Under the pieces are notes generated by a model that was not told the DNA's origin, searched no databases, and was given only the letters and a program-made list of their open reading frames with translations. From Candidatus Zixiibacteriota bacterium (lineage in GTDB: Bacteria > Zixibacteria > MSB-5A5 > GN15 > FEB-12), in assembly GCA_041742355.1 (NCBI GenBank), contig JBGSIV010000269.1:1-10445 (forward strand): a stretch of 10,445 nt of DNA. Direction: 5' to 3'. Both the position numbers and the translations under genes were made by a program. Each line of letters opens with the position of its first letter. Within the stretch, counting starts at the first letter, position 1. This document shows, one piece after another, positions 890-10,083 of the stretch.

Positions 890-2233
890 TCAGCGCTGCA
901 TCGCCTCATGTATCCGGCCGTCCGCTTCCCGCACAGTGAGATCGTCGCCGCCGAACGCAATGCCGGCCTGACGAAGCATCTCGAAAGGGGGCAATCCGCC
1001 CGCCTGCACAATTACGACATCATTTACAATCTCTATCGGCGTCTCCAGGTTCAGAACCACCGCCCCCGGGCGGATTTCCCGGACCTCTGAGTTGAAATAC
1101 GCCGTGATCCGGCCGCCCCGGACAGCATCGGTAACCGCCTCTTCGTTCTTTTTCTTTATACGAAAGAAGCGGGGCTTGCGATACGAAAGACTGACCGTAT
1201 TGTCGGGCTGGCGCGCCAAGCCCACCGCAGCTTCGACCGCGCTGTCCCCCCCGCCGACTACGAGGATATGTTTGCCCCGGTACGACTGGGCATCGACCAA
1301 CTGGTAAATCACCTTCGGCAGGTCTTCGCCCGGGACATTCAGCTTCCGGGGAGTGCCGCGTCGGCCAAGAGCCAGGACGACATACTGCCCGACGATCTCC
1401 TCTCCCCCGTCCAGAGTGACGACGAACGAACGCTCAAGCGGGCGGACAGCTTCCACCCGCCGACCGCAGCGAATGTCGAGCGCTGACTGTTTCGCGACCT
1501 CCTGCCAGATTGCCAGCAGTTCTTCTTTGGCATATTCGTCACGATCGAGCGCGCCGTACTGCGGAATCTCCACCGGCTGCGTCATCACCAGTTTGCGTCG
1601 TGGGTAGTGGAGGATGGTGCCGCCGAGGTCGTACTGGTCAAGGACAATGCACGACAGGCCGTGCTCCCGTGCGGTCAGTGCCGCGGTGAGACCAGCCGGG
1701 CCGGCGCCGACGACAATAACATCGGGACCGCCGCCCGATTGGGGCCGGATGCGGCGGGCGATTTCGGTGGCAACGAGGCGGCCTTGCGCCACGGCATGGC
1801 GAATGAGCGAGATACCGCTGAGTTCGCCCGCGATAAAAAGGCCGGGGACCGAGGTTTCGTTGTGCTCGGAGAGGATGGGAATGTCGGGGCGGCTGCGGAT
1901 GTCGCCCAGGCCGACTTTCAGCGCCCCCACCGGGCAGGCAGTCTCGCAGTAGCCGTGGCCGACACACCGATCGCCGTTGATCACTTCTGCGACTCCCCAG
2001 ACAACCGCGAGCACATCCCCCTCGGGACAGGCGGCAACGCAGGAGCCGCAGCCGATGCACTGCGATCGATCAACCTGCGGGTATTGGCCGCGGGGACGGT
2101 CGATGCCGAGCGACTGGGCTTCCGCATGCCGTGCCTCGGCCAACGCCTGCGTCTTACGGAATTTGGCGAAGTACGGAATGAAGACTGCGAGCACGAGCGC
2201 GATCGCAATTATCCAGATGAGTCCTGTTTCCAT
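890..2233 (-). CDS. Membrane-anchored 2x[Fe-S] ferredoxin / FAD / NAD(P)H oxidoreductase, TrxR/YpdA-like fold, circularly permuted (447 aa)
   Basis: Start placed at METGLIW (2233), downstream of the upstream gene's stop at 2256. Features in order: TM helix followed by KFRK; CIGCGSCVAACP; CVGHGYCETACP; ETSVPGLFIAGE; VIVVGAGPAG (FAD); VVLALG; PRKLNVPGEDLPKV; ILVVGGGDSAVEAA plus SYRK (NAD(P)H). No CxxC redox disulfide. Confidence 0.88.
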   Translation of the reverse strand: METGLIWIIAIALVLAVFIPYFAKFRKTQALAEARHAEAQSLGIDRPRGQYPQVDRSQCIGCGSCVAACPEGDVLAVVWGVAEVINGDRCVGHGYCETACPVGALKVGLGDIRSRPDIPILSEHNETSVPGLFIAGELSGISLIRHAVAQGRLVATEIARRIRPQSGGGPDVIVVGAGPAGLTAALTAREHGLSCIVLDQYDLGGTILHYPRRKLVMTQPVEIPQYGALDRDEYAKEELLAIWQEVAKQSALDIRCGRRVEAVRPLERSFVVTLDGGEEIVGQYVVLALGRRGTPRKLNVPGEDLPKVIYQLVDAQSYRGKHILVVGGGDSAVEAAVGLARQPDNTVSLSYRKPRFFRIKKKNEEAVTDAVRGGRITAYFNSEVREIRPGAVVLNLETPIEIVNDVVIVQAGGLPPFEMLRQAGIAFGGDDLTVREADGRIHEAMQR

Positions 2234-2255
2234 CGCATTTGCTATTCGACAAAGG

Positions 2256-3866
2256 TCAGAAGCGATAACCCAATTCGGTATTGAGCCGCCAGCCGTCGAT
2301 ATCATCCCCTTGGTTGAATTGCACCTGCCCGCCCAGGTAGTAGTGACGAGCGATGTCGGTATCGATGCCTATTTCGAGCCACCAGCTTGACCGGCTTTCG
2401 TCTAGCTTGTCGACGGTGTAGCGATACGCACCATAACCGCAGTGCCAGAAACCGGCACCCGGGAGCTGGGCCTGAAGGCGCGCGGCGTAGTTGGCGCCGC
2501 GTTCGAAGGCACCATTGAAGCCGCTGAAGTACGCCGATGCGGAAAGCCAGCGATAACCGAGCGATGACCGTCGTACTGAGAAGCTGTAGGTCAGGGTCGG
2601 ATCTTCGTCATCGGGACGGCTGCGGTAGCCGCCGCCCGCGCTCAGATTCCACGTCGAGGTGGGCGACCAGTCCATACGGGTACGCCATCCGGTGCGAGTG
2701 CGGTCGTCGAAGAGGCTGTCGGCGAGCGAATAGTACTCGTAGGTCCAGTAGCGTTTGAGGTTGTCGTAGCTGACGCTCAAGCGCAGGGCGCTGTGGGCAC
2801 GCCACCAGGTGTTGACGAAGACTCGTGACAGGGAAGCGCTCTCCCCCGCGCGGTCTTTTCGCCAGCCGGTATTGATGTCAATCTCGGCCGAGTGGCTGAT
2901 TCCCCAACTGCGGCCGATCTGCAGTTGCCCCTGGCTGGCAAGGAAGGATCGGTTGATAGTTCCGCTATGATACTCGCCGATACCGCCGAGGGTCTGGGAG
3001 AACGCCAGTCCGCCACGGTTGGGAGAAGCATAGTGCAGGTAGCCTCCGAGGCGAGTGATCGAGAAGTCCTCGGTGCGGTACCACCATTCGGGTTGCTGTC
3101 CGCCGAGAAGGCCGAGGCGTGAAGATTCGGTCAGGCGGAGTTCGACCATGCCGCCGTCGATGTATCCCACCACAGGCAGACGTCTAGGCAGAAGGCGTCC
3201 TGCCGTAGCTGACAGGCGGCCGGTAGGATTGTCGTAGGAGAGGGAGAGTTCCCAGAGGCGGTTCTCCCAGGCGTTCCGGCCGACCGCGCCATAGGACCGT
3301 GCCCGATCGTCGTATCGTCCGCGGCTGCGGATGGCCAGTGTAACGTTTTCGCGCCACAGGTGCCGGGCTTTGACCGAGAGACGGGCGTTGGTCTGGGTGA
3401 AGTCGAGGGCAGCGGGGCTGCCATCGCCCCAATGATAGTAGCCAATTCCGAAGCTCCCGGTAACGCGAGTGGGATGGGCCACTGTGTGAGCCCGTGGGAT
3501 TTCGGCAGCCGGAGCGGGCGGTTCAACTGATGTCGCGAGTGGCGCAGCGGTTGTATCGGAGGCACCTTGCCGAAGGGCCTGTCTAAGGACAAAGAGCTTA
3601 TCGCCAACCTTGAGCTGGAGCGATCCCATGATCGGACGGCAGGAACCGGAATGCCCGGCGACGAAAACGACTTCCAGCACGACCGAGTCGCCGCCGACAA
3701 CCACGCCCAGACGGTCGCCAATGTTCAGGCCATCCTCCCGGCCACCGTCGACATAAATATGGTCGGCCGAGACATAGGTCACGGCGAATTCACTGCGCTC
3801 GGCCAGAGCCGATCCGGCGAGCAGCAGAAAAAGACCAACCGAGTACTTGAGCGCGGCCCGCATCAT
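2256..3866 (-). CDS. Outer-membrane beta-barrel protein with an N-terminal small beta-domain and Pro/Ala linker; putative porin of a porin-cytochrome complex (536 aa)
   Basis: ATG at 3866 overlaps the upstream TGA (TGATG). Signal peptide MMRAALKYSVGLFLLLAGSALA|E. About 400 aa of alternating amphipathic, aromatic-rich strands end in WRLNTELGYRF, a C-terminal Phe beta-signal. Confidence 0.8.
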   Translation of the reverse strand: MMRAALKYSVGLFLLLAGSALAERSEFAVTYVSADHIYVDGGREDGLNIGDRLGVVVGGDSVVLEVVFVAGHSGSCRPIMGSLQLKVGDKLFVLRQALRQGASDTTAAPLATSVEPPAPAAEIPRAHTVAHPTRVTGSFGIGYYHWGDGSPAALDFTQTNARLSVKARHLWRENVTLAIRSRGRYDDRARSYGAVGRNAWENRLWELSLSYDNPTGRLSATAGRLLPRRLPVVGYIDGGMVELRLTESSRLGLLGGQQPEWWYRTEDFSITRLGGYLHYASPNRGGLAFSQTLGGIGEYHSGTINRSFLASQGQLQIGRSWGISHSAEIDINTGWRKDRAGESASLSRVFVNTWWRAHSALRLSVSYDNLKRYWTYEYYSLADSLFDDRTRTGWRTRMDWSPTSTWNLSAGGGYRSRPDDEDPTLTYSFSVRRSSLGYRWLSASAYFSGFNGAFERGANYAARLQAQLPGAGFWHCGYGAYRYTVDKLDESRSSWWLEIGIDTDIARHYYLGGQVQFNQGDDIDGWRLNTELGYRF

Positions 3867-5332
3867 CAGTGAGTCCCCCGTGGATGGCATTCGTAGCAGG
3901 CCGTACTCACATACCGGTAATTGGGAACGTTTTCTTCAGCATGGTCCGCGTCGGTGTCGGTCTTGTTGTGTTCGTGGCAGGTGATGCACTCGAAGGTGCC
4001 GAAGTCGGTCGGTACGGTGTGGCACTCGCTGCAGGTCGACCAACGGTTTCTATGCGTTCCGGAGTAGATCGGGAAGTACTGGGCATCGTGATCCCAGGTC
4101 GCAGGGGTCCAACCGGAGGACGTGTGACATGTCTGACATGCTGTCGAGAAGCCGGCGGCAAGGTGGCCCGGGTCGGTTGTGGCGTCGTAGTCGGTCTGGT
4201 GGCAGGAAGCACAGTCCGGGGATGTGCCGGTGTAGGAACCCTCGTGGCAACTGGCGCAGGCCAGGCCGACATGTTGTCCGGTAAGCGGAAAGCCGGTCAG
4301 GTCGTGATCATACGAAGCCGGCTGCCAGCCGTTGGGAGTATGGCAGACCTCGCACTCGGTGGGCATCCCAGCGCTGGCGTGATTGGGGTTGGCGCTGCCG
4401 TCGTAATCGGCCTGGTGGCAGGCGTAGCATGTCGACGGCGTCTGAGTATACCCTCCCTCATGACAGCTGATGCACGTGGCGTTGACGTGTTGTCCAATCA
4501 GCGCGAATCCGGTGGCGGCGTGGTCGAAGGTCGCGGGCACCCAGGCCGAGGTTGAATGGCAGTCGGTGCAGGTGGGCGCGAAGCCGCCCTGTTCGTGGTT
4601 GGGGTCGGTGGTCGCAGCGAAATCGGGGGCGTGGCAATCATAACACTCCCCAGGCGTACCCGCGAATCCTCCCTCGTGGCAGGCGCTGCAATTGAGCGCG
4701 AGGTGGGCGCCGGTGAGGGGGAACGAGGCCGGGTGTTCATAGGTGGTGCGGGACCAGGTGCCGAACGCGGCATGGTGGCAGCGCTCGCAGTCGGCCTGGA
4801 AGGCAAGCTGCTGGTGGTCAGGGTCGACGATGCCCGCAGCGTCGGCCGCATGGCAGGCCTCGCACTGGGTGGGGGTACCGACATACTCCTGGCGATCGCG
4901 GTTGTTGTGGCAGGCCTCACAGTCAGCGACAGCGTGGACGCCGGTCAGCGGGAAGCCCTGCTCGGCGTGCTGAAGGAGGATATCGCGGCGGGGTTGCCAG
5001 TCACGCGGCGTGTGGCATTCCGCACAGGCTAGACCAAGCTGTCCCTGGTGGTGGTCGCTGTGGCAGTCGGCGCAGGCAGTCCCAACGTGGGAAAAGACGG
5101 GATCACGGTGGCATTCGGCGCAGACCGCCTGCCGGTGGGCGCCATCAAGCCGAAAACCGGTTTCCTCGTGGCTGAAGACCATTTCCTCCCGCAGGTCGGT
5201 CCACGAAGCGGTCGTGTGGCAATCCTGGCAATCCCATTTGATCTGCCCGTGTGGGTTGCGGCTGTTCTGGGTCAGCGCAACGCCGGCTATCAACAACAGC
5301 AGGGCAATGGACGAAATGAGAAGAGTCTTCAT
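3866..5332 (-). CDS. Multiheme c-type cytochrome, 19 CxxCH, tri-heme repeat architecture (488 aa)
   Basis: AGGAG RBS; ATG at 5332 forms an ATGA overlap with the upstream stop. Signal peptide MKTLLISSIALLLLIAGVALT|Q. 19 CxxCH motifs; repeats of ~72 aa (W.P..fdH..tgFpLtG.H...CxxCH...CxxCH...PnH...CxxCH). Confidence 0.95.
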   Translation of the reverse strand: MKTLLISSIALLLLIAGVALTQNSRNPHGQIKWDCQDCHTTASWTDLREEMVFSHEETGFRLDGAHRQAVCAECHRDPVFSHVGTACADCHSDHHQGQLGLACAECHTPRDWQPRRDILLQHAEQGFPLTGVHAVADCEACHNNRDRQEYVGTPTQCEACHAADAAGIVDPDHQQLAFQADCERCHHAAFGTWSRTTYEHPASFPLTGAHLALNCSACHEGGFAGTPGECYDCHAPDFAATTDPNHEQGGFAPTCTDCHSTSAWVPATFDHAATGFALIGQHVNATCISCHEGGYTQTPSTCYACHQADYDGSANPNHASAGMPTECEVCHTPNGWQPASYDHDLTGFPLTGQHVGLACASCHEGSYTGTSPDCASCHQTDYDATTDPGHLAAGFSTACQTCHTSSGWTPATWDHDAQYFPIYSGTHRNRWSTCSECHTVPTDFGTFECITCHEHNKTDTDADHAEENVPNYRYVSTACYECHPRGTH

Positions 5333-7014
5333 GAACCGGTCTCCTGTCCAACAGGTGGCTGAACGTGACAGAATCTGCACTGGCGTTCGAGCGGACGGTA
5401 ACGGACATACTGCCCGCGTTCGTCAGCAACGGCCGGATGGCACTTTACGCAGGCGACCCGGGCGTGAGCACCTTCAAGGGGGAACTGCGTATCACGGTTG
5501 TGGTCGAATCGGGCCGGCCGCCACTCGGCGGTCGCATGGCAGCGGGTGCAGTCGGTAGTACCGGCGGCATCCGTAAACTGGCCGCGATGAAAGTCCTGGT
5601 GGCATGCGGCGCACGATTTCTCCACGGGCGCAAAACGCAAAGGCGCCCGGTCGGCGATGTCGGTGTTCTTGTGGCACCGGATGCAGGCGACCTTGCTGTG
5701 GCGGCCGTCGAGGGGGTACGTCGTGGTGCTGTGATCAAAGCTGATATCGCGCCAGCTGTCTTCAGTATGGCAGGTTGCGCAGCCTTCCGCAACAGCAAAT
5801 TTGGCGGTGCTTCCCTGGTGGGGATCGGCATGGCAGACGGTGCAGGCGGTGGATTCATAGAGGAAGGTGTAGGCCACATTCTTCGCGGACGAAGTCCTGA
5901 GATGACACTGGTCGCAGGGGATCGCGAGGTGGGCGCCTTTCAAGGGGTAATCGGTCGTCGCGTGTTGTTCGAGGCGGAAGGTCGAGGGGCGGAAGGACTG
6001 GACAGTGTGGCACTCTTCGCAGGCTCCTTTGCTTTCACGGCGGGAGAATGCGCCAACGTGATAGTCGCGGTGGCAGTCGCGACATGCCGCGAATTGCAGG
6101 GGAGCGGAGGTCGATCGGTCGCCGTGGCACTTGGTGCAGGCGACCGAGACGTGGCGACCCTCGAGCGGAAAGCGAGTGCGGTTGTGGTTGAAGCCGGAAG
6201 TGTTGACGATGTTCCAACCGTCGACCGTATGACAACCGGAACACGAGCCCGCCAGACGCCCCTGGTGGGGATCGCGGTGGCAGTCGGAGCAGAGAGCGTG
6301 GGCGACAGGTTTGTACTGGCGGCAGTGGGATTCGGGGCGAGCCTGGTCTCCGAGGAGTTGGTGGCATTTTTCGCAGGCTACTGCGGTGTGACGGCCAGCC
6401 AGCGGAAAGGCGCTCAGCGAGTGGTTGAAGCCGGAGGCCGGACGCCAGCCGGAGTCGGTGTGACAGGAAGCGCAATCGGCGCCGAGCTGTCCGCGGTGCT
6501 GATCGGTGTGGCAGGTAGTGCAGGCGCGGCTCAGGCCCAGAAAGGTGCGGTCGGGAGCGACGTTGGCCGCTTTGAGAGCGCCCGTGTCCCGCAGGCGATC
6601 GGGTCGATGGCACTCGCGGCATTGCAGGGTCGCGTGTTTGCCGGTGAGCGGATAGCCCGTCAGGGTATGATTGAAGGAATCCATGCCGCCCTTGAAGTAG
6701 ATCAGGTCGAAATCTCGGCCGTGGTGCTCGACATGGCAGAGGTTGCACTCGGCGTACTCCGCACGAGCATGCAATCCGGTGCCGGCGCGCCGCTGGTCGG
6801 CAATGGGAGAATGACAGGCGAGGCATTTCTCGGGAAGCTGATCTCCTTGCGGGCTGTGGCACTTGCCGCAGTTCTCCACTCCCTCAAGAGATGCGTGCGA
6901 ACGGTGCAGATCCCCCGGAGAAATCTGTGCAAGAATGGACTCGCCAAAGAACAGCAGTACTGCGAGCCCGACGAAATATGAGTGCGAGAATATATGTAGT
7001 CGTTGCCCAAACAT
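5329..7014 (-). CDS. Multiheme c-type cytochrome, 20 CxxCH, tri-heme repeat architecture (561 aa)
   Basis: GAGGAG RBS a few bases before ATG 7014 (MFGQRL...), just after the upstream stop at 7025. Signal peptide ends ESILA|QISPGDLH. 20 CxxCH motifs with recurring distal His motifs FnH, PL.G.H and D.H.G. Confidence 0.95.
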   Translation of the reverse strand: MFGQRLHIFSHSYFVGLAVLLFFGESILAQISPGDLHRSHASLEGVENCGKCHSPQGDQLPEKCLACHSPIADQRRAGTGLHARAEYAECNLCHVEHHGRDFDLIYFKGGMDSFNHTLTGYPLTGKHATLQCRECHRPDRLRDTGALKAANVAPDRTFLGLSRACTTCHTDQHRGQLGADCASCHTDSGWRPASGFNHSLSAFPLAGRHTAVACEKCHQLLGDQARPESHCRQYKPVAHALCSDCHRDPHQGRLAGSCSGCHTVDGWNIVNTSGFNHNRTRFPLEGRHVSVACTKCHGDRSTSAPLQFAACRDCHRDYHVGAFSRRESKGACEECHTVQSFRPSTFRLEQHATTDYPLKGAHLAIPCDQCHLRTSSAKNVAYTFLYESTACTVCHADPHQGSTAKFAVAEGCATCHTEDSWRDISFDHSTTTYPLDGRHSKVACIRCHKNTDIADRAPLRFAPVEKSCAACHQDFHRGQFTDAAGTTDCTRCHATAEWRPARFDHNRDTQFPLEGAHARVACVKCHPAVADERGQYVRYRPLERQCRFCHVQPPVGQETGS

Positions 7015-7024
7015 AAGAGACTCC

Positions 7025-7945
7025 TCAGAACCAGCCGTAGCCGGTCCAGATAGCGATGCCGATATGGACGCCCATAATGATGTACATAATAATGGCGAAG
7101 GGCTTGTGAATAACGTGCCAGTAGTGAAAGAGGCGCTGCACGCGTGCCAGAACCGCAAGTCGTCGGCGCAACAACGCGCGCCTCTTCGCCGCGGCGAAGA
7201 GGCGGTCAAACGCCTTCCCCGACAGGTGGAAGCGGAGCGAGAGAGACCGCCTGAGGTGCAGATCGGTCCAGGGACGCCGCAGGTCGGTCCAGATCAGGCG
7301 GGCGACGGCACCAAGGGCACCGGCGGATCCAACCGAATAGGCAGCCTCGACCTGGTTTGAAATGGTCCCCGCGTCCGACTGATCGATGCGAGCGGTGGAC
7401 TGCATATCGCCTGCGAGCTGCGCAATCAGGCGGTCGATTTCCTGCAGGTTGAGCTCGCGGTCATCGACGTCGCGCGGAATCTGCTGGTAGAGGTAGCGTC
7501 CGAAGTAGCCACTGAGAGCAACCGCCACCATCGACCAGAAGGCAATCGCCACGAGCCCCTGCACTTTGAACGAAGTGTGCAGAAGAATGAAGAGCGGCCC
7601 GAAGACGCCCATGAAGATGTGGAAGTCGAGAAACGGCCGCAGCGGGAGACGTCGGCCAAGAACGCGGGTGCGCTTGCGAAGCGTGTACACGAGCATGAGC
7701 ACCATCATAGCCGATCCGATAATGCCGAAGGTCAAGCCGAGGCGACCAGCCGGCCGGAGGGAACGGTAATCGGAGTGGTGGGGCCGCTCGACATAGGGTG
7801 TGCCGTAGTAGGACAGCCCGGCGGCGATGAAATACACGATGACGGCAAAACCAACCATATACGCGGCCGGCAGGAGAAACCGCCGGAGCGATGTTCCGGG
7901 CCGTCGTTCCCGGGTGTCTGGAGATGTAAGCAGTACTTCGTTCAT
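7025..7945 (-). CDS. Inner-membrane protein (~5 TM), putative di-heme b, ferric-reductase-like transmembrane electron carrier (306 aa)
   Basis: Five hydrophobic segments. His109/His123 (FHIFMGVFGPLFILLH) lie in TM3 and His280/His294 (IHKPFAIIMYIIMGVH) in TM5, each pair spaced i,i+14. A ~100-aa soluble helical loop separates TM4 and TM5. Confidence 0.75.
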   Translation of the reverse strand: MNEVLLTSPDTRERRPGTSLRRFLLPAAYMVGFAVIVYFIAAGLSYYGTPYVERPHHSDYRSLRPAGRLGLTFGIIGSAMMVLMLVYTLRKRTRVLGRRLPLRPFLDFHIFMGVFGPLFILLHTSFKVQGLVAIAFWSMVAVALSGYFGRYLYQQIPRDVDDRELNLQEIDRLIAQLAGDMQSTARIDQSDAGTISNQVEAAYSVGSAGALGAVARLIWTDLRRPWTDLHLRRSLSLRFHLSGKAFDRLFAAAKRRALLRRRLAVLARVQRLFHYWHVIHKPFAIIMYIIMGVHIGIAIWTGYGWF

Positions 7946-8996: not shown

Positions 8997-9304
8997 CTAC
9001 GGTAGAAGAAGGCACAGGTGGAGTCCGAGCGAGGGCACGACGGCCTCTACTGCGTCTCCGGTGCAGCCCGGCAAGCGCGCCGTTACTTCCTCCAATTTAT
9101 TCTTCGGCGGGGAATCTGCGGATCTTTAATATTTTCGCGCCGATTCTGAGTGTGCTCTGGAGAGAGACTCAGGGAGGATTCTGTCAAGAAGAGGCGCGTG
9201 AGCTCCGGAGCCTGTGCTCACGGCTTGCGGGGAGCGCTGGGAGGAATACAAGCGAATCTTCTGTTGTTCCCTCGCCCCGGAGTCCGGTGGTTGTCGAAGT
9301 CTCT

Positions 9305-9333
9305 CCGGACGGGGATCCGAGTCTCCCGTCCGG
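9305..9333. other. GC-rich hairpin just downstream of the chemoreceptor-fragment stop
   Basis: CCGGACGGG (9305-9313) and CCCGTCCGG (9325-9333) form a perfect 9-bp inverted repeat. There is no U-tract. Confidence 0.5.
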
Positions 9334-9361
9334 TGGCGGTCCTCACGTGGACTCAGCGTGC

Positions 9362-9660
9362 TCAGGCGTTTACTTTGAACTTGGTGACCATGTTCTGCAG
9401 GCCCTCGGCCTGGCGGTTGAGCTCTTCGGCCGCGGTGGCCGCCTGCTCCACCCCGGTGGCCGATTCCCGCGTCACCGAACTGATGTGCTCCATCGACCGG
9501 GAAATCTGCTCGACCGCGCTGGACTGCTCTTCGCTGGCCTTGGCCATCTGGGCCACCATCTCGGTCACCTTCTGGGCCATGGTCACGATCTCGCTTAAGC
9601 TCGAGCCCGCCTTGTCGGCCAGGCTGCGCCCCTTGTCCACCTCGCTGATGCCCGATGCGG
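9362..9660 (-). pseudogene. C-terminal fragment of a methyl-accepting chemotaxis protein (5'-truncated)
   Basis: SGISEVDKGRSLADKAGSSLSEIVTMAQKVTEMVAQMAKASEEQSSAVEQISRSMEHISSVTRESATGVEQAATAAEELNRQAEGLQNMVTKFKV is a typical MCP C-terminal helix with SEEQ and AEEL methylation sites. The conserved hairpin tip (LLALNAAIEAARAG) and the sensor are absent; repeat DNA lies upstream instead. Confidence 0.8.
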
Positions 9661-9666
9661 CCGCTC

Positions 9667-9692
9667 GGGGGTGACACAAGGCCACCCCCTAC
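9667..9692 (-). repeat. GTAG-type REP-like hairpin at the MCP truncation point
   Basis: Minus strand reads GTAG-GGGGTG-gccttgtgt-CACCCC. Confidence 0.6.
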
Positions 9693-9901
9693 GCGGTCGC
9701 GGGGCCACATTCCACGCGGGTTTGAGGCCACATCCTGCTCGGGCGAGAGGGACGTCGCACGTGCTCGCAGGCCTTGTCTGTCGGCGGGTGGACGCATCGA
9801 CGAATTGGGTTCGTTTGCGCAGTTTCCTCTGTGCGTTCATAGCTCTCCGCGGTCTTTTCATACTTGCTTCCCAGTCGGGTTTCTCGGGGCTTTGCCCCTC
9901 G

Positions 9902-9957
9902 GAACACCGACCTACTCCCCAACAACCTCGACCTACGCACCAAGAACACCGACCTAC
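9902..9957 (+). repeat. Three degenerate tandem units with a 21-bp period, each ending in CGACCTAC
   Basis: GAACACCGACCTAC (9902-9915), CAACCTCGACCTAC (9923-9936), GAACACCGACCTAC (9944-9957). Confidence 0.8.
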
Positions 9958-10002
9958 CATTGGGTTCGTTTGCGCAAATCTCCTGATCCAAACTCTCCCC
10001 TT

Positions 10003-10028
10003 GTCAGGCTCCAAGGAGCCTGACCTAC
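10003..10028 (-). repeat. GTAG-type REP-like hairpin
   Basis: + strand reads GTCAGGCTCC-AA-GGAGCCTGAC-CTAC. Confidence 0.8.
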
Positions 10029-10060
10029 GTCCCTTTAAGAAGAGCACTCGTATCGGGCTC

Positions 10061-10083
10061 CCCACAGCAGAGCTGTGGGTTAC
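10061..10083 (-). repeat. REP-like hairpin variant with a GTAA foot
   Basis: + strand reads CCCACAGC-AGA-GCTGTGGG-TTAC. Confidence 0.45.

Follow-up and report, generated by a model that had tools for sequence, protein, structure and literature searches.

The window, that is, the whole stretch of DNA analysed here, is an entire 10,445-base contig of the 4.37-Mb draft genome of a Candidatus Zixiibacteriota bacterium. Between positions 890 and 7945 it carries five intact open reading frames (ORFs), all co-oriented on the minus strand, whose predicted products are an inner-membrane protein (IMP), two multiheme cytochromes, an outer-membrane beta-barrel and an iron-sulfur (Fe-S) flavoprotein. An ORF survey of the window and comparisons with other genomes showed that these genes form a recurring cassette resembling the porin-cytochrome clusters known as PCC3, with the flavoprotein as a constant member, and the predicted proteins together suggest a path for electrons from cytoplasmic NAD(P)H to the cell surface. 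The gene starts were set by agreement with homologues, and the genes are, from the upstream end:

7025-7945, minus strand: IMP, 306 residues with five predicted helices, a predicted carrier of two b hemes
5329-7014, minus strand: cytochrome A, 561 residues with 20 CXXCH motifs and a signal peptide, a predicted periplasmic heme wire
3866-5332, minus strand: cytochrome B, 488 residues with 19 CXXCH motifs and a signal peptide, a predicted outer or extracellular heme wire
2256-3866, minus strand: predicted outer-membrane beta-barrel, 536 residues with a signal peptide and a 22-strand model
890-2233, minus strand: Fe-S flavoprotein, 447 residues, predicted to be membrane-anchored

The genes are tightly spaced. 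Read from the sequence, a 10-bp gap separates the IMP gene from that of cytochrome A, the two cytochrome genes overlap in ATGA (5329-5332), the genes of cytochrome B and the barrel overlap in TGATG (3864-3868), and a 22-bp gap lies between the barrel and the flavoprotein genes. The initial annotation of this DNA had described five co-oriented genes with the same gaps and overlaps and a total of 39 c-heme sites; the coordinates agree, and 20 and 19 CXXCH motifs were counted in the two cytochromes.

The same five genes recur together in other genomes. In a set of 41 relatives the match to the IMP was strong in 12 genomes and weak in two, and 13 loci around IMP matches were fetched. Seven of the 13 (L013, L015, L016, L019, L021, L022 and L023) hold all five genes, three are interrupted by contig ends, and two, with weak IMP-like matches, lack the set. 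The flavoprotein was detected at E <= 1e-40 in 11 of the 41 relatives, all of them within the 12 with a strong IMP match; the twelfth IMP genome (G024) has a partial flavoprotein copy at a contig end, and none of the other 29 genomes has the flavoprotein. One of the fetched loci (L014) is shortened at 4162-4841, where cytochrome B has 131 residues with four heme sites and just the last ~96 barrel residues are left. Intact genes of cytochrome A and the flavoprotein flank the shortened part, which reflects either an internal deletion or an assembly fault.

A wider survey, with one genome per species, comprised at least 580 confirmed IMP relatives, and the counts given here per 80 refer to the best 80 loci. 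The flavoprotein gene is present in 69 of the 80; each of the remaining 11 lies on a contig that stops short of the barrel gene's end, upstream of the place that the flavoprotein takes in that arrangement. All five genes are found in 56 loci, 21 others are cut by the end of the contig or the locus, and three are true exceptions (L069, L078 and L091). Writing I for the IMP, A and B for the cytochromes, P for the barrel and F for the flavoprotein, the gene order is I-A-B-P-F in 29 loci, I-F-A-B-P in 16, F-I-A-B-P in eight and I-A-F-B-P in three. Thus, the flavoprotein gene shifts its position within the cluster yet remains in it. No sixth gene recurs in the 80 loci, where the commonest extra family is found in 11. 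Five recurring genes in four orders and the lack of a recurring sixth gene indicate that the set is a cassette whose surroundings change. About ten phyla are represented among the labels of the hosts, including Zixibacteria, Ignavibacteria, Abyssobacteria, Acidobacteriota, Krumholzibacteria, Eisenbacteria, Gemmatimonadota, Calditrichaceae, Marinamargulisbacteria and many Bacteroidota. Such recurrence puts the arrangement far beyond chance. Failure of the genes to co-occur elsewhere had been named beforehand as a result that would overturn the initial annotation; the opposite was found, and strongly, in the 56 of 80 loci, the seven of 13 and the phyletic pattern. The flavoprotein is therefore a core, co-inherited part of the PCC3-like conduit.

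The flavoprotein matches the families Pyr_redox_3 (144 bits) and Pyr_redox_2 and has two Fer4 matches, and among solved structures it is closest to YpdA/Bdr and thioredoxin-reductase-like ferredoxin-NADP reductases. Four features were located along the chain:

2156..2233, minus strand: N-terminal anchor helix, residues 1-26, a hydrophobic segment followed by KFRK
1934..2059, minus strand: two ferredoxin-type motifs, CxxCxxCxxxCP and CxxHxxCxxxCP, residues 59-100, from an alignment of 27 homologues
1691..1708, minus strand: FAD (flavin adenine dinucleotide) dinucleotide motif GAGPAG, residues 176-181, with G176, G178, P179 and G181 invariant and A180 nearly so
1175..1258, minus strand: second dinucleotide motif VVGGGDSAVEAA with the downstream SYRK, residues 326-353, the predicted NAD(P)H site

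Within the Fe-S motifs, C59, C65, C69, C90, H93, C96 and C100 are invariant in the 27 homologues and C62 is variable. H93 occupies the position usually held by the second Cys of the second motif, and since this His is invariant, one of the two clusters is likely His-ligated. His-ligated Fe-S clusters are often the exit points of electron-transfer chains. V326-G329, S331, A332, E334 and A336 of the second dinucleotide motif and R352 within SYRK are likewise invariant. We liken the basic SYRK motif to the HRR motif of thioredoxin reductase, and the preferred nucleotide is presumably NADPH. No twin-arginine leader was found in the flavoprotein; this, together with cofactors of the kind that fold in the cytoplasm and the basic residues after the anchor, suggests that the catalytic part faces the cytoplasm, and the positive-inside rule points to an N-out/C-in topology.

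Solved YpdA chains (326-328 residues) lack both the membrane anchor and the two-cluster ferredoxin domain, whereas the flavoprotein has both. Against TIGR04018, the model of the YpdA/Bdr bacillithiol disulfide reductases, it scores 161.7 bits, below the cut-off of 339.9. No CxxC active-site disulfide was found in the flavoprotein, in which two Cys lie outside the Fe-S motifs and neither is conserved. A YpdA-type disulfide reductase was set aside on the grounds of the missing disulfide and the score.

The IMP matches no Pfam or NCBIfam family, and a match to the Pfam ferric-reductase transmembrane domain was absent at E <= 0.01. It has no Cys. Two HX13H pairs are made up of H109, H123, H280 and H294, and each of these four His is kept in all 26 aligned homologues. 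The conserved motifs are placed on three helices:

7577..7621, minus strand: helix 3 motif FX3-H109-X13-H123, the first His pair, both His invariant in the 26 homologues
7499..7513, minus strand: helix 4 motif SGYFG (SGXXG), with S145, G146 and G149 invariant
7064..7120, minus strand: helix 5 motif W276-X3-H280-X13-H294, the second His pair, with W276, H280 and H294 invariant

The AlphaFold model of the IMP (predicted local distance difference test score, pLDDT, 81.6) shows five membrane helices (18-42, 68-93, 102-123, 131-154 and 243-300), the last two being separated by a helical insert rich in Arg (155-264). According to the positive-inside rule, the N-terminus and the insert would be cytoplasmic and the C-terminus periplasmic, so that H109 and H280 would sit close to the cytoplasm and H123 and H294 close to the periplasm. 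In the model this placement corresponds to the usual layout of a two-heme transmembrane wire, and binding of heme b by the IMP is predicted. The closest named homologues of the IMP come from metagenome bins of Zixibacteria and Abyssobacteria. A look-up in the ESM Atlas returned matched clusters that all lack annotation and are commonest in Acidobacteriota and Gemmatimonadota. The family comprises 669 cluster representatives at E <= 1e-30 and 3,930 at E <= 0.001.

Both cytochromes match the Cytochrome_C7 and the class III cytochrome c families. Neither is close to the named multiheme models: TIGR03508 (the DmsE/MtrA decaheme) gives 49.1 and 24 bits against a cut-off of 192.2, and the HmcA model 26.3 and 19.2 bits against a cut-off of 400. 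No CX3CH or CX4CH motif was found in the five proteins, and no CXXCH in the IMP, the barrel or the flavoprotein. Heme sites were counted across related loci in single complete ORFs only (L026-L105; n=72 for cytochrome A and n=51 for cytochrome B). The homologues of cytochrome A have exactly 20 CXXCH sites in 58 of the 72 loci and 3n+2 sites in 68, and those of cytochrome B have from 10 to 73 sites, with 3n+1 in 42 of the 51. Both cytochromes therefore look built of triheme units, which suggests growth by such units, with cytochrome B freely extended. In the window, cytochrome B packs 19 CXXCH motifs into 488 residues, or ~25 residues per heme; neither a lipobox Cys nor a secretion signal other than the signal peptide was found in it. 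The source genome contains cytochrome c maturation genes. The barrel matches no Pfam or NCBIfam family, MtrB_PioB included. In its model (pLDDT 83.4) the signal peptide is followed by a small beta domain (26-95), then by a disordered linker and finally by 22 strands (134-535). Foldseek matched this model to usher and porin outer-membrane barrels, with a best E of 1.5e-9 and 333 matches at E <= 0.001. The barrel is predicted to reside in the outer membrane, and cytochrome A in the periplasm.

The cluster resembles PCC3 in composition. In the available passages of He, Barco, Emerson and Roden (2017, PMC5566968), the IMP of PCC3 and PCC4 is described as having ~300 residues, five helices, SGXXG in helix 4 and WX3HX13H in helices 3 and 5, and the median heme numbers of PCC3 are given as 21 for the periplasmic and 34 for the extracellular cytochrome, the former being conserved and the latter variable. 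The IMP of the window agrees with this signature in length, helices and invariant motifs, with F for W in the first motif as the sole departure. Cytochrome A, with 20 CXXCH sites and a signal peptide, agrees with the ~21 hemes of a periplasmic cytochrome, its own periplasmic location being predicted, and the second cytochrome varies in heme number. The beta-barrel likewise corresponds, with its signal peptide, 22-strand model and matches to outer-membrane barrels. The relation to predicted PCC3 clusters proposed by the initial annotation therefore holds, and the cluster is PCC3-like, an assignment made by motif and composition rather than by homology to the type clusters.

Two differences separate the cluster from published PCC3. 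As far as the passages and supplements of PMC5566968 go, PCC3 consists of four genes in Alpha-, Beta- and Gammaproteobacteria, the supplement headings reading 'four component genes' and 'Proteobacterial class', whereas here a fifth gene is constant and the hosts are labelled Zixibacteria, Acidobacteriota, Bacteroidota and other phyla. The flavoprotein was not found in the searched passages and supplements on PCC3, and the supplements of PMC5566968 lack the terms oxidoreductase, FAD, ferredoxin and pyridine. The fifth gene, the flavoprotein, is what is new with respect to print. A table in the accessible part of PMC10734462 lists a '4Fe-4S ferredoxin' cluster in 41 of 87 genomes and the PCC3 periplasmic cytochrome in 42 of 87. 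These near-equal counts might reflect the same partnership in Gallionellaceae, and we note them as a lead only.

A complete five-gene set is also present in a cultured organism, Emticicia oligotrophica DSM 17448, on the 100-kb plasmid pEMTOL02 (NC_018749.1), at ~81.3-90.0 kb. It comprises an IMP with both His pairs and SGXXG, the flavoprotein, a barrel homologue, and cytochromes with 23 and 40 heme sites. The initial annotation had allowed that homologous clusters may already be annotated as hypothetical, and the names given to these genes are indeed generic only: hypothetical protein, NAD(P)-binding protein and cytochrome c3 family protein. The Emticicia cluster (L108, 5890-18474) directly follows a ccsA gene for a system II cytochrome c synthase of 1028 residues, and the gene of a GW-domain protein comes after it.

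Searches of plasmids with the IMP, cytochrome A and the flavoprotein found no full cluster except that of Emticicia. They revealed shorter modules on plasmids of Bradyrhizobium sp. BTAi1, Legionella fallonii and Variovorax sp. RA8, in which a short IMP-like gene stands between genes of a reductase and of a cytochrome c3. The three-gene modules are located as follows:

L109, 8288-10442: plasmid three-gene module
L110, 2980-6310: plasmid three-gene module
L111, 2857-6531: plasmid three-gene module

The reductase (640-686 residues) combines FAD_binding_6, NAD_binding_1 and Fer2, and its gene in BTAi1 is cut by an insertion sequence. The IMP-like protein (228-249 residues) matches the N-terminal helices of the IMP and weakly the last helix, and some copies are labelled 'iron reductase'; the cytochrome c3 is small (240-290 residues). 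These modules are like the cluster in that a protein of the IMP family lies beside an NAD(P)H flavo-FeS reductase and a periplasmic multiheme cytochrome. They are unlike it in three respects: their reductase has a separate type of fold and a [2Fe-2S] cluster, their cytochrome is small, and they include no barrel gene. As the plasmid reductase belongs to a different fold class, the IMP family pairs with two unrelated kinds of NAD(P)H flavo-FeS reductase. The Legionella fallonii module adjoins a large multicopper oxidase gene, and Bradyrhizobium BTAi1 has three copies of the module on one plasmid. A further plasmid match, in Pseudoalteromonas, lies among glycosyltransferase genes and is unrelated.

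Longer proteins were searched for fusions of the IMP with the flavoprotein. Two metagenomic proteins, P0121 and P0122 (729 and 746 residues), have a multi-cluster ferredoxin domain (Fer4_7, Fer4_11) fused to a C-terminal IMP domain; in both, the Fe-S part (poly-Fer4 with PF13247) differs in type from that of the flavoprotein. This fusion resembles the Fe-S gene beside the IMP in subgroup II of PCC4, as described in the accessible passages of PMC5566968. Two others, P0225 (half of an IMP with a cytochrome) and P0238 (an IMP with the back half of Pyr_redox_3), look like chimeras of gene calls and were not used.

Taken together, we estimate at roughly 60% the probability that the five genes are a PCC3-like set with an anchored Fe-S flavoprotein that forms one path from cytoplasmic NAD(P)H to the cell surface; the cofactor binding, the contacts, the direction, the donor and the acceptor in this path are what we infer. 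The flavoprotein, anchored at the inner face of the inner membrane by its N-terminal helix, would oxidise NAD(P)H at the FAD and pass the electrons to its two Fe-S clusters, the last of which would have the invariant His as a ligand. From there the electrons would enter the cytoplasm-side b heme of the IMP (H109/H280), cross to the periplasm-side b heme (H123/H294) and move to the 20-heme cytochrome A, which would span the periplasm. Cytochrome B with its 19 hemes, placed inside the 22-strand barrel or beyond it, would then deliver them to an external acceptor, for which minerals of Fe(III) or Mn(IV), humics and a partner cell are candidates. Outward flow would be aided by the inside-negative membrane potential; no protons would be released outside and no energy would be conserved at this step. 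In NADPH oxidases (NOX), the outward electron step costs rather than makes proton-motive force. If the outward step is dissipative, the system would act not as a coupling site but as a sink for electrons that keeps the redox state balanced.

A bolder form of this proposal, to which we give slightly less than even odds, is that the cluster encodes a self-contained, quinone-independent NAD(P)H:extracellular-acceptor oxidoreductase. It would consist of a split NOX-like module (the Fe-S flavoprotein and the di-heme b protein), a modular heme cable and a barrel of its own, and would have spread by gene transfer across the ~ten phyla as an electron sink that bypasses the respiratory chain in fermenters and other anaerobes. 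The outer part of the cable would vary by triheme units, with 3n+1 hemes (10-73).

Several points weigh against these proposals. Consensus scans for promoters and terminators at the locus performed no better than shuffles, so that a single transcript is suggested by the gene spacing only. The contact between the flavoprotein and the IMP is presumed. The three exceptional loci depart from the set in different ways: L069 has the IMP and the flavoprotein and no cytochrome within 7 kb, L091 has no cytochrome A and a split orientation, and no barrel was found in L078. PCC3 itself is a conduit type known from prediction only in the accessible parts of PMC5566968, of the Gallionellaceae surveys (PMC9900912/PMC10734462) and of a preprint on Sideroxydans CL21 (10.1101/2025.02.27.639646). 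A thiol-linked role of the flavoprotein is possible, YpdA/Bdr, its nearest named family, being disulfide-reducing. For the IMP model, Foldseek found no match in the PDB at E <= 0.001. The top VIA-align neighbours are di-heme b membrane proteins (CybB, Z 9.1; FdnI, 7.8; STEAP1, 7.5; SpNOX, 6.8; cytochrome b561, 6.8; HyaC, 6.7), and DUOX1 (6.0) is also among the neighbours; all lie in the grey zone of Z < ~13 for helical bundles, where such bundles match by arrangement alone and the matches are consistent with a di-heme protein rather than proof of one.

Three of these neighbours, CybB, FdnI and HyaC, react with quinones, which fits the quinone-linked role proposed in print for the IMP and makes a quinone site possible. 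This leads to the best surviving alternative, in which the IMP is a quinol:cytochrome c (or cytochrome c:quinone) oxidoreductase and the flavoprotein is an accessory for heme poise, repair or a side reaction. The available text of PMC5566968 proposes that the PCC3 IMP, as a quinone-active cytochrome b, exchanges electrons with quinones. However, the flavoprotein is found with the IMP in every locus that can be judged (69/69) and follows its phyletic pattern, and an accessory would not be expected to persist so tightly across four rearrangements. In addition, the IMP-like proteins of the plasmid modules pair with a second, unrelated NAD(P)H flavo-FeS reductase. In view of this evidence we regard a quinone-linked IMP as unlikely.

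The initial annotation had allowed flow through the conduit in either direction. Its composition, its relation to PCC3 and the co-occurrence of its five genes have stood, and the constancy of the flavoprotein has added to them, whereas the equal standing of the two directions is doubtful. Inward flow would take electrons from a strongly reducing external donor, such as a cathode, Fe(0), reduced minerals or a syntrophic partner, to NAD(P)+ for biosynthesis. Heme wires are reversible in principle, and PCC3 was first found in iron oxidisers and proposed for electron uptake, according to the accessible passages of PMC5566968. However, electron entry through a two-heme membrane protein would be opposed by the inside-negative potential, the NAD(P)+ couple (~-320 mV) lies below most natural donors such as Fe(II), and the five genes include no subunit that could couple the step to proton-motive force. 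Inward reduction of NAD(P)+ is thus rated below outward flow, and it seems a shade less probable than the quinone-linked alternative. Least probable of all, and improbable in itself, is a flavoprotein that does not use NAD(P)H and links the conduit to a low-molecular-weight thiol/disulfide couple or to soluble ferredoxin, since, although its closest solved or curated relatives are the YpdA/Bdr disulfide reductases and the ferredoxin-NADP reductases, both dinucleotide motifs are invariant in the 27 homologues, including GGGxSAxE with the downstream basic SYRK, and the disulfide and the YpdA-level score are missing.

The NAD(P)H-to-surface path preferred here has counterparts in known systems. 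NADPH oxidase and ferric reductase proteins and the MsrQ-Fre pair of E. coli pass electrons from NAD(P)H through a flavin and two b hemes to an acceptor on the far side of the membrane, and in the NOX/ferric reductase type two His pairs on two helices hold the b hemes. Unlike these proteins, the IMP has five helices instead of six and no Pfam ferric-reductase match, and its partner is a thioredoxin-reductase-like flavoprotein with two Fe-S clusters rather than an FNR-like dehydrogenase domain. The acceptor also differs, being a predicted heme wire here and O2 or a periplasmic enzyme in NOX and MsrQ. The likeness of the PCC3 IMP to the NOX/ferric reductase type was pointed out in the passages available from PMC5566968.

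To our knowledge, the characterised porin-cytochrome conduits all start from the quinone pool. MtrCAB with CymA, MtoAB/PioAB, and Geobacter Pcc/Ext with ImcH/CbcL share with the cluster the principle of hemes threaded through an outer-membrane barrel. However, these conduits draw on quinol through separately encoded inner-membrane cytochromes, whereas the cluster has a flavoprotein gene of its own. The absence of an MtrB_PioB match and the sub-cut-off score with TIGR03508 separate it from MtrCAB/MtoAB/PioAB. In Tmc and Hmc of sulfate reducers, a periplasmic multiheme cytochrome c, a membrane cytochrome b and a cytoplasmic Fe-S protein are linked. These complexes have no outer-membrane part, and their cytoplasmic subunit is HdrD-like rather than a pyridine-nucleotide flavoprotein.

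The statement of the initial annotation that no experimentally characterised system has this composition stands in so far as none was found in the full-text literature, with subscription journals mostly outside its scope. In the same literature no paper was found on quinone-independent extracellular electron transfer with NADH and multiheme cytochromes. The statement has to be qualified by a partial precedent, the uncharacterised porin-cytochrome operon ptdABCDEFG of marine Alphaproteobacteria and others. According to the part of the preprint that was available (10.1101/2023.11.21.568154), ptd encodes 5-, 4- and 10-heme proteins, an FAD/NAD(P) oxidoreductase, a cyclic-nucleotide-binding 2x[4Fe-4S] protein and a ferric-reductase-like membrane protein. 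This composition is analogous though not identical, and the general idea is therefore not wholly without precedent in print. As far as that description allows a comparison, ptd has separate FAD and Fe-S proteins, whereas a single fused Fe-S flavoprotein and wires of 20 and 19 hemes are present here, and no cyclic-nucleotide-binding domain was found in the five proteins.

If the proposal is true, a conduit fed by NAD(P)H would represent a different logic of extracellular electron transfer, one that needs no respiratory chain. Its membrane step would dissipate energy rather than conserve it, and the system could be moved as one five-gene cassette. The role proposed for the PCC3 IMP, now a candidate marker of iron oxidation, would then need revision. 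The hosts include abundant lineages of sediment and soil, and the cluster could explain part of the 'iron cycling' potential given to Zixibacteria and Ignavibacteriales in metagenomic surveys. As Emticicia oligotrophica DSM 17448 is a cultured carrier, the question is directly testable.

The ORFs that flank the cluster in the window (a phosphodiester-glycosidase-like ORF, a divergent enoyl-CoA hydratase and a chemoreceptor fragment) are unrelated to it. The first runs off the start of the window on the minus strand (1-1011). Its N-terminus is signal-like, and its match is to the family of NAGPA phosphodiester glycosidases (E 9.7e-11). It follows the flavoprotein gene ~76 bp further downstream on that strand and is not conserved with the cluster at other loci. 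The ORF at 9362-9685 (minus strand, 107 residues) matches just the last part of a chemoreceptor signalling domain, and several long overlapping ORFs surround it on both strands within 9126-10065. It may be the remnant of a broken methyl-accepting chemotaxis gene. Elsewhere in the source genome, DUF4405 gave two sub-threshold matches only (23 and 21 bits), on another contig (G000:C61:12264-14597), and these fall in long open frames of 988 and 667 residues.

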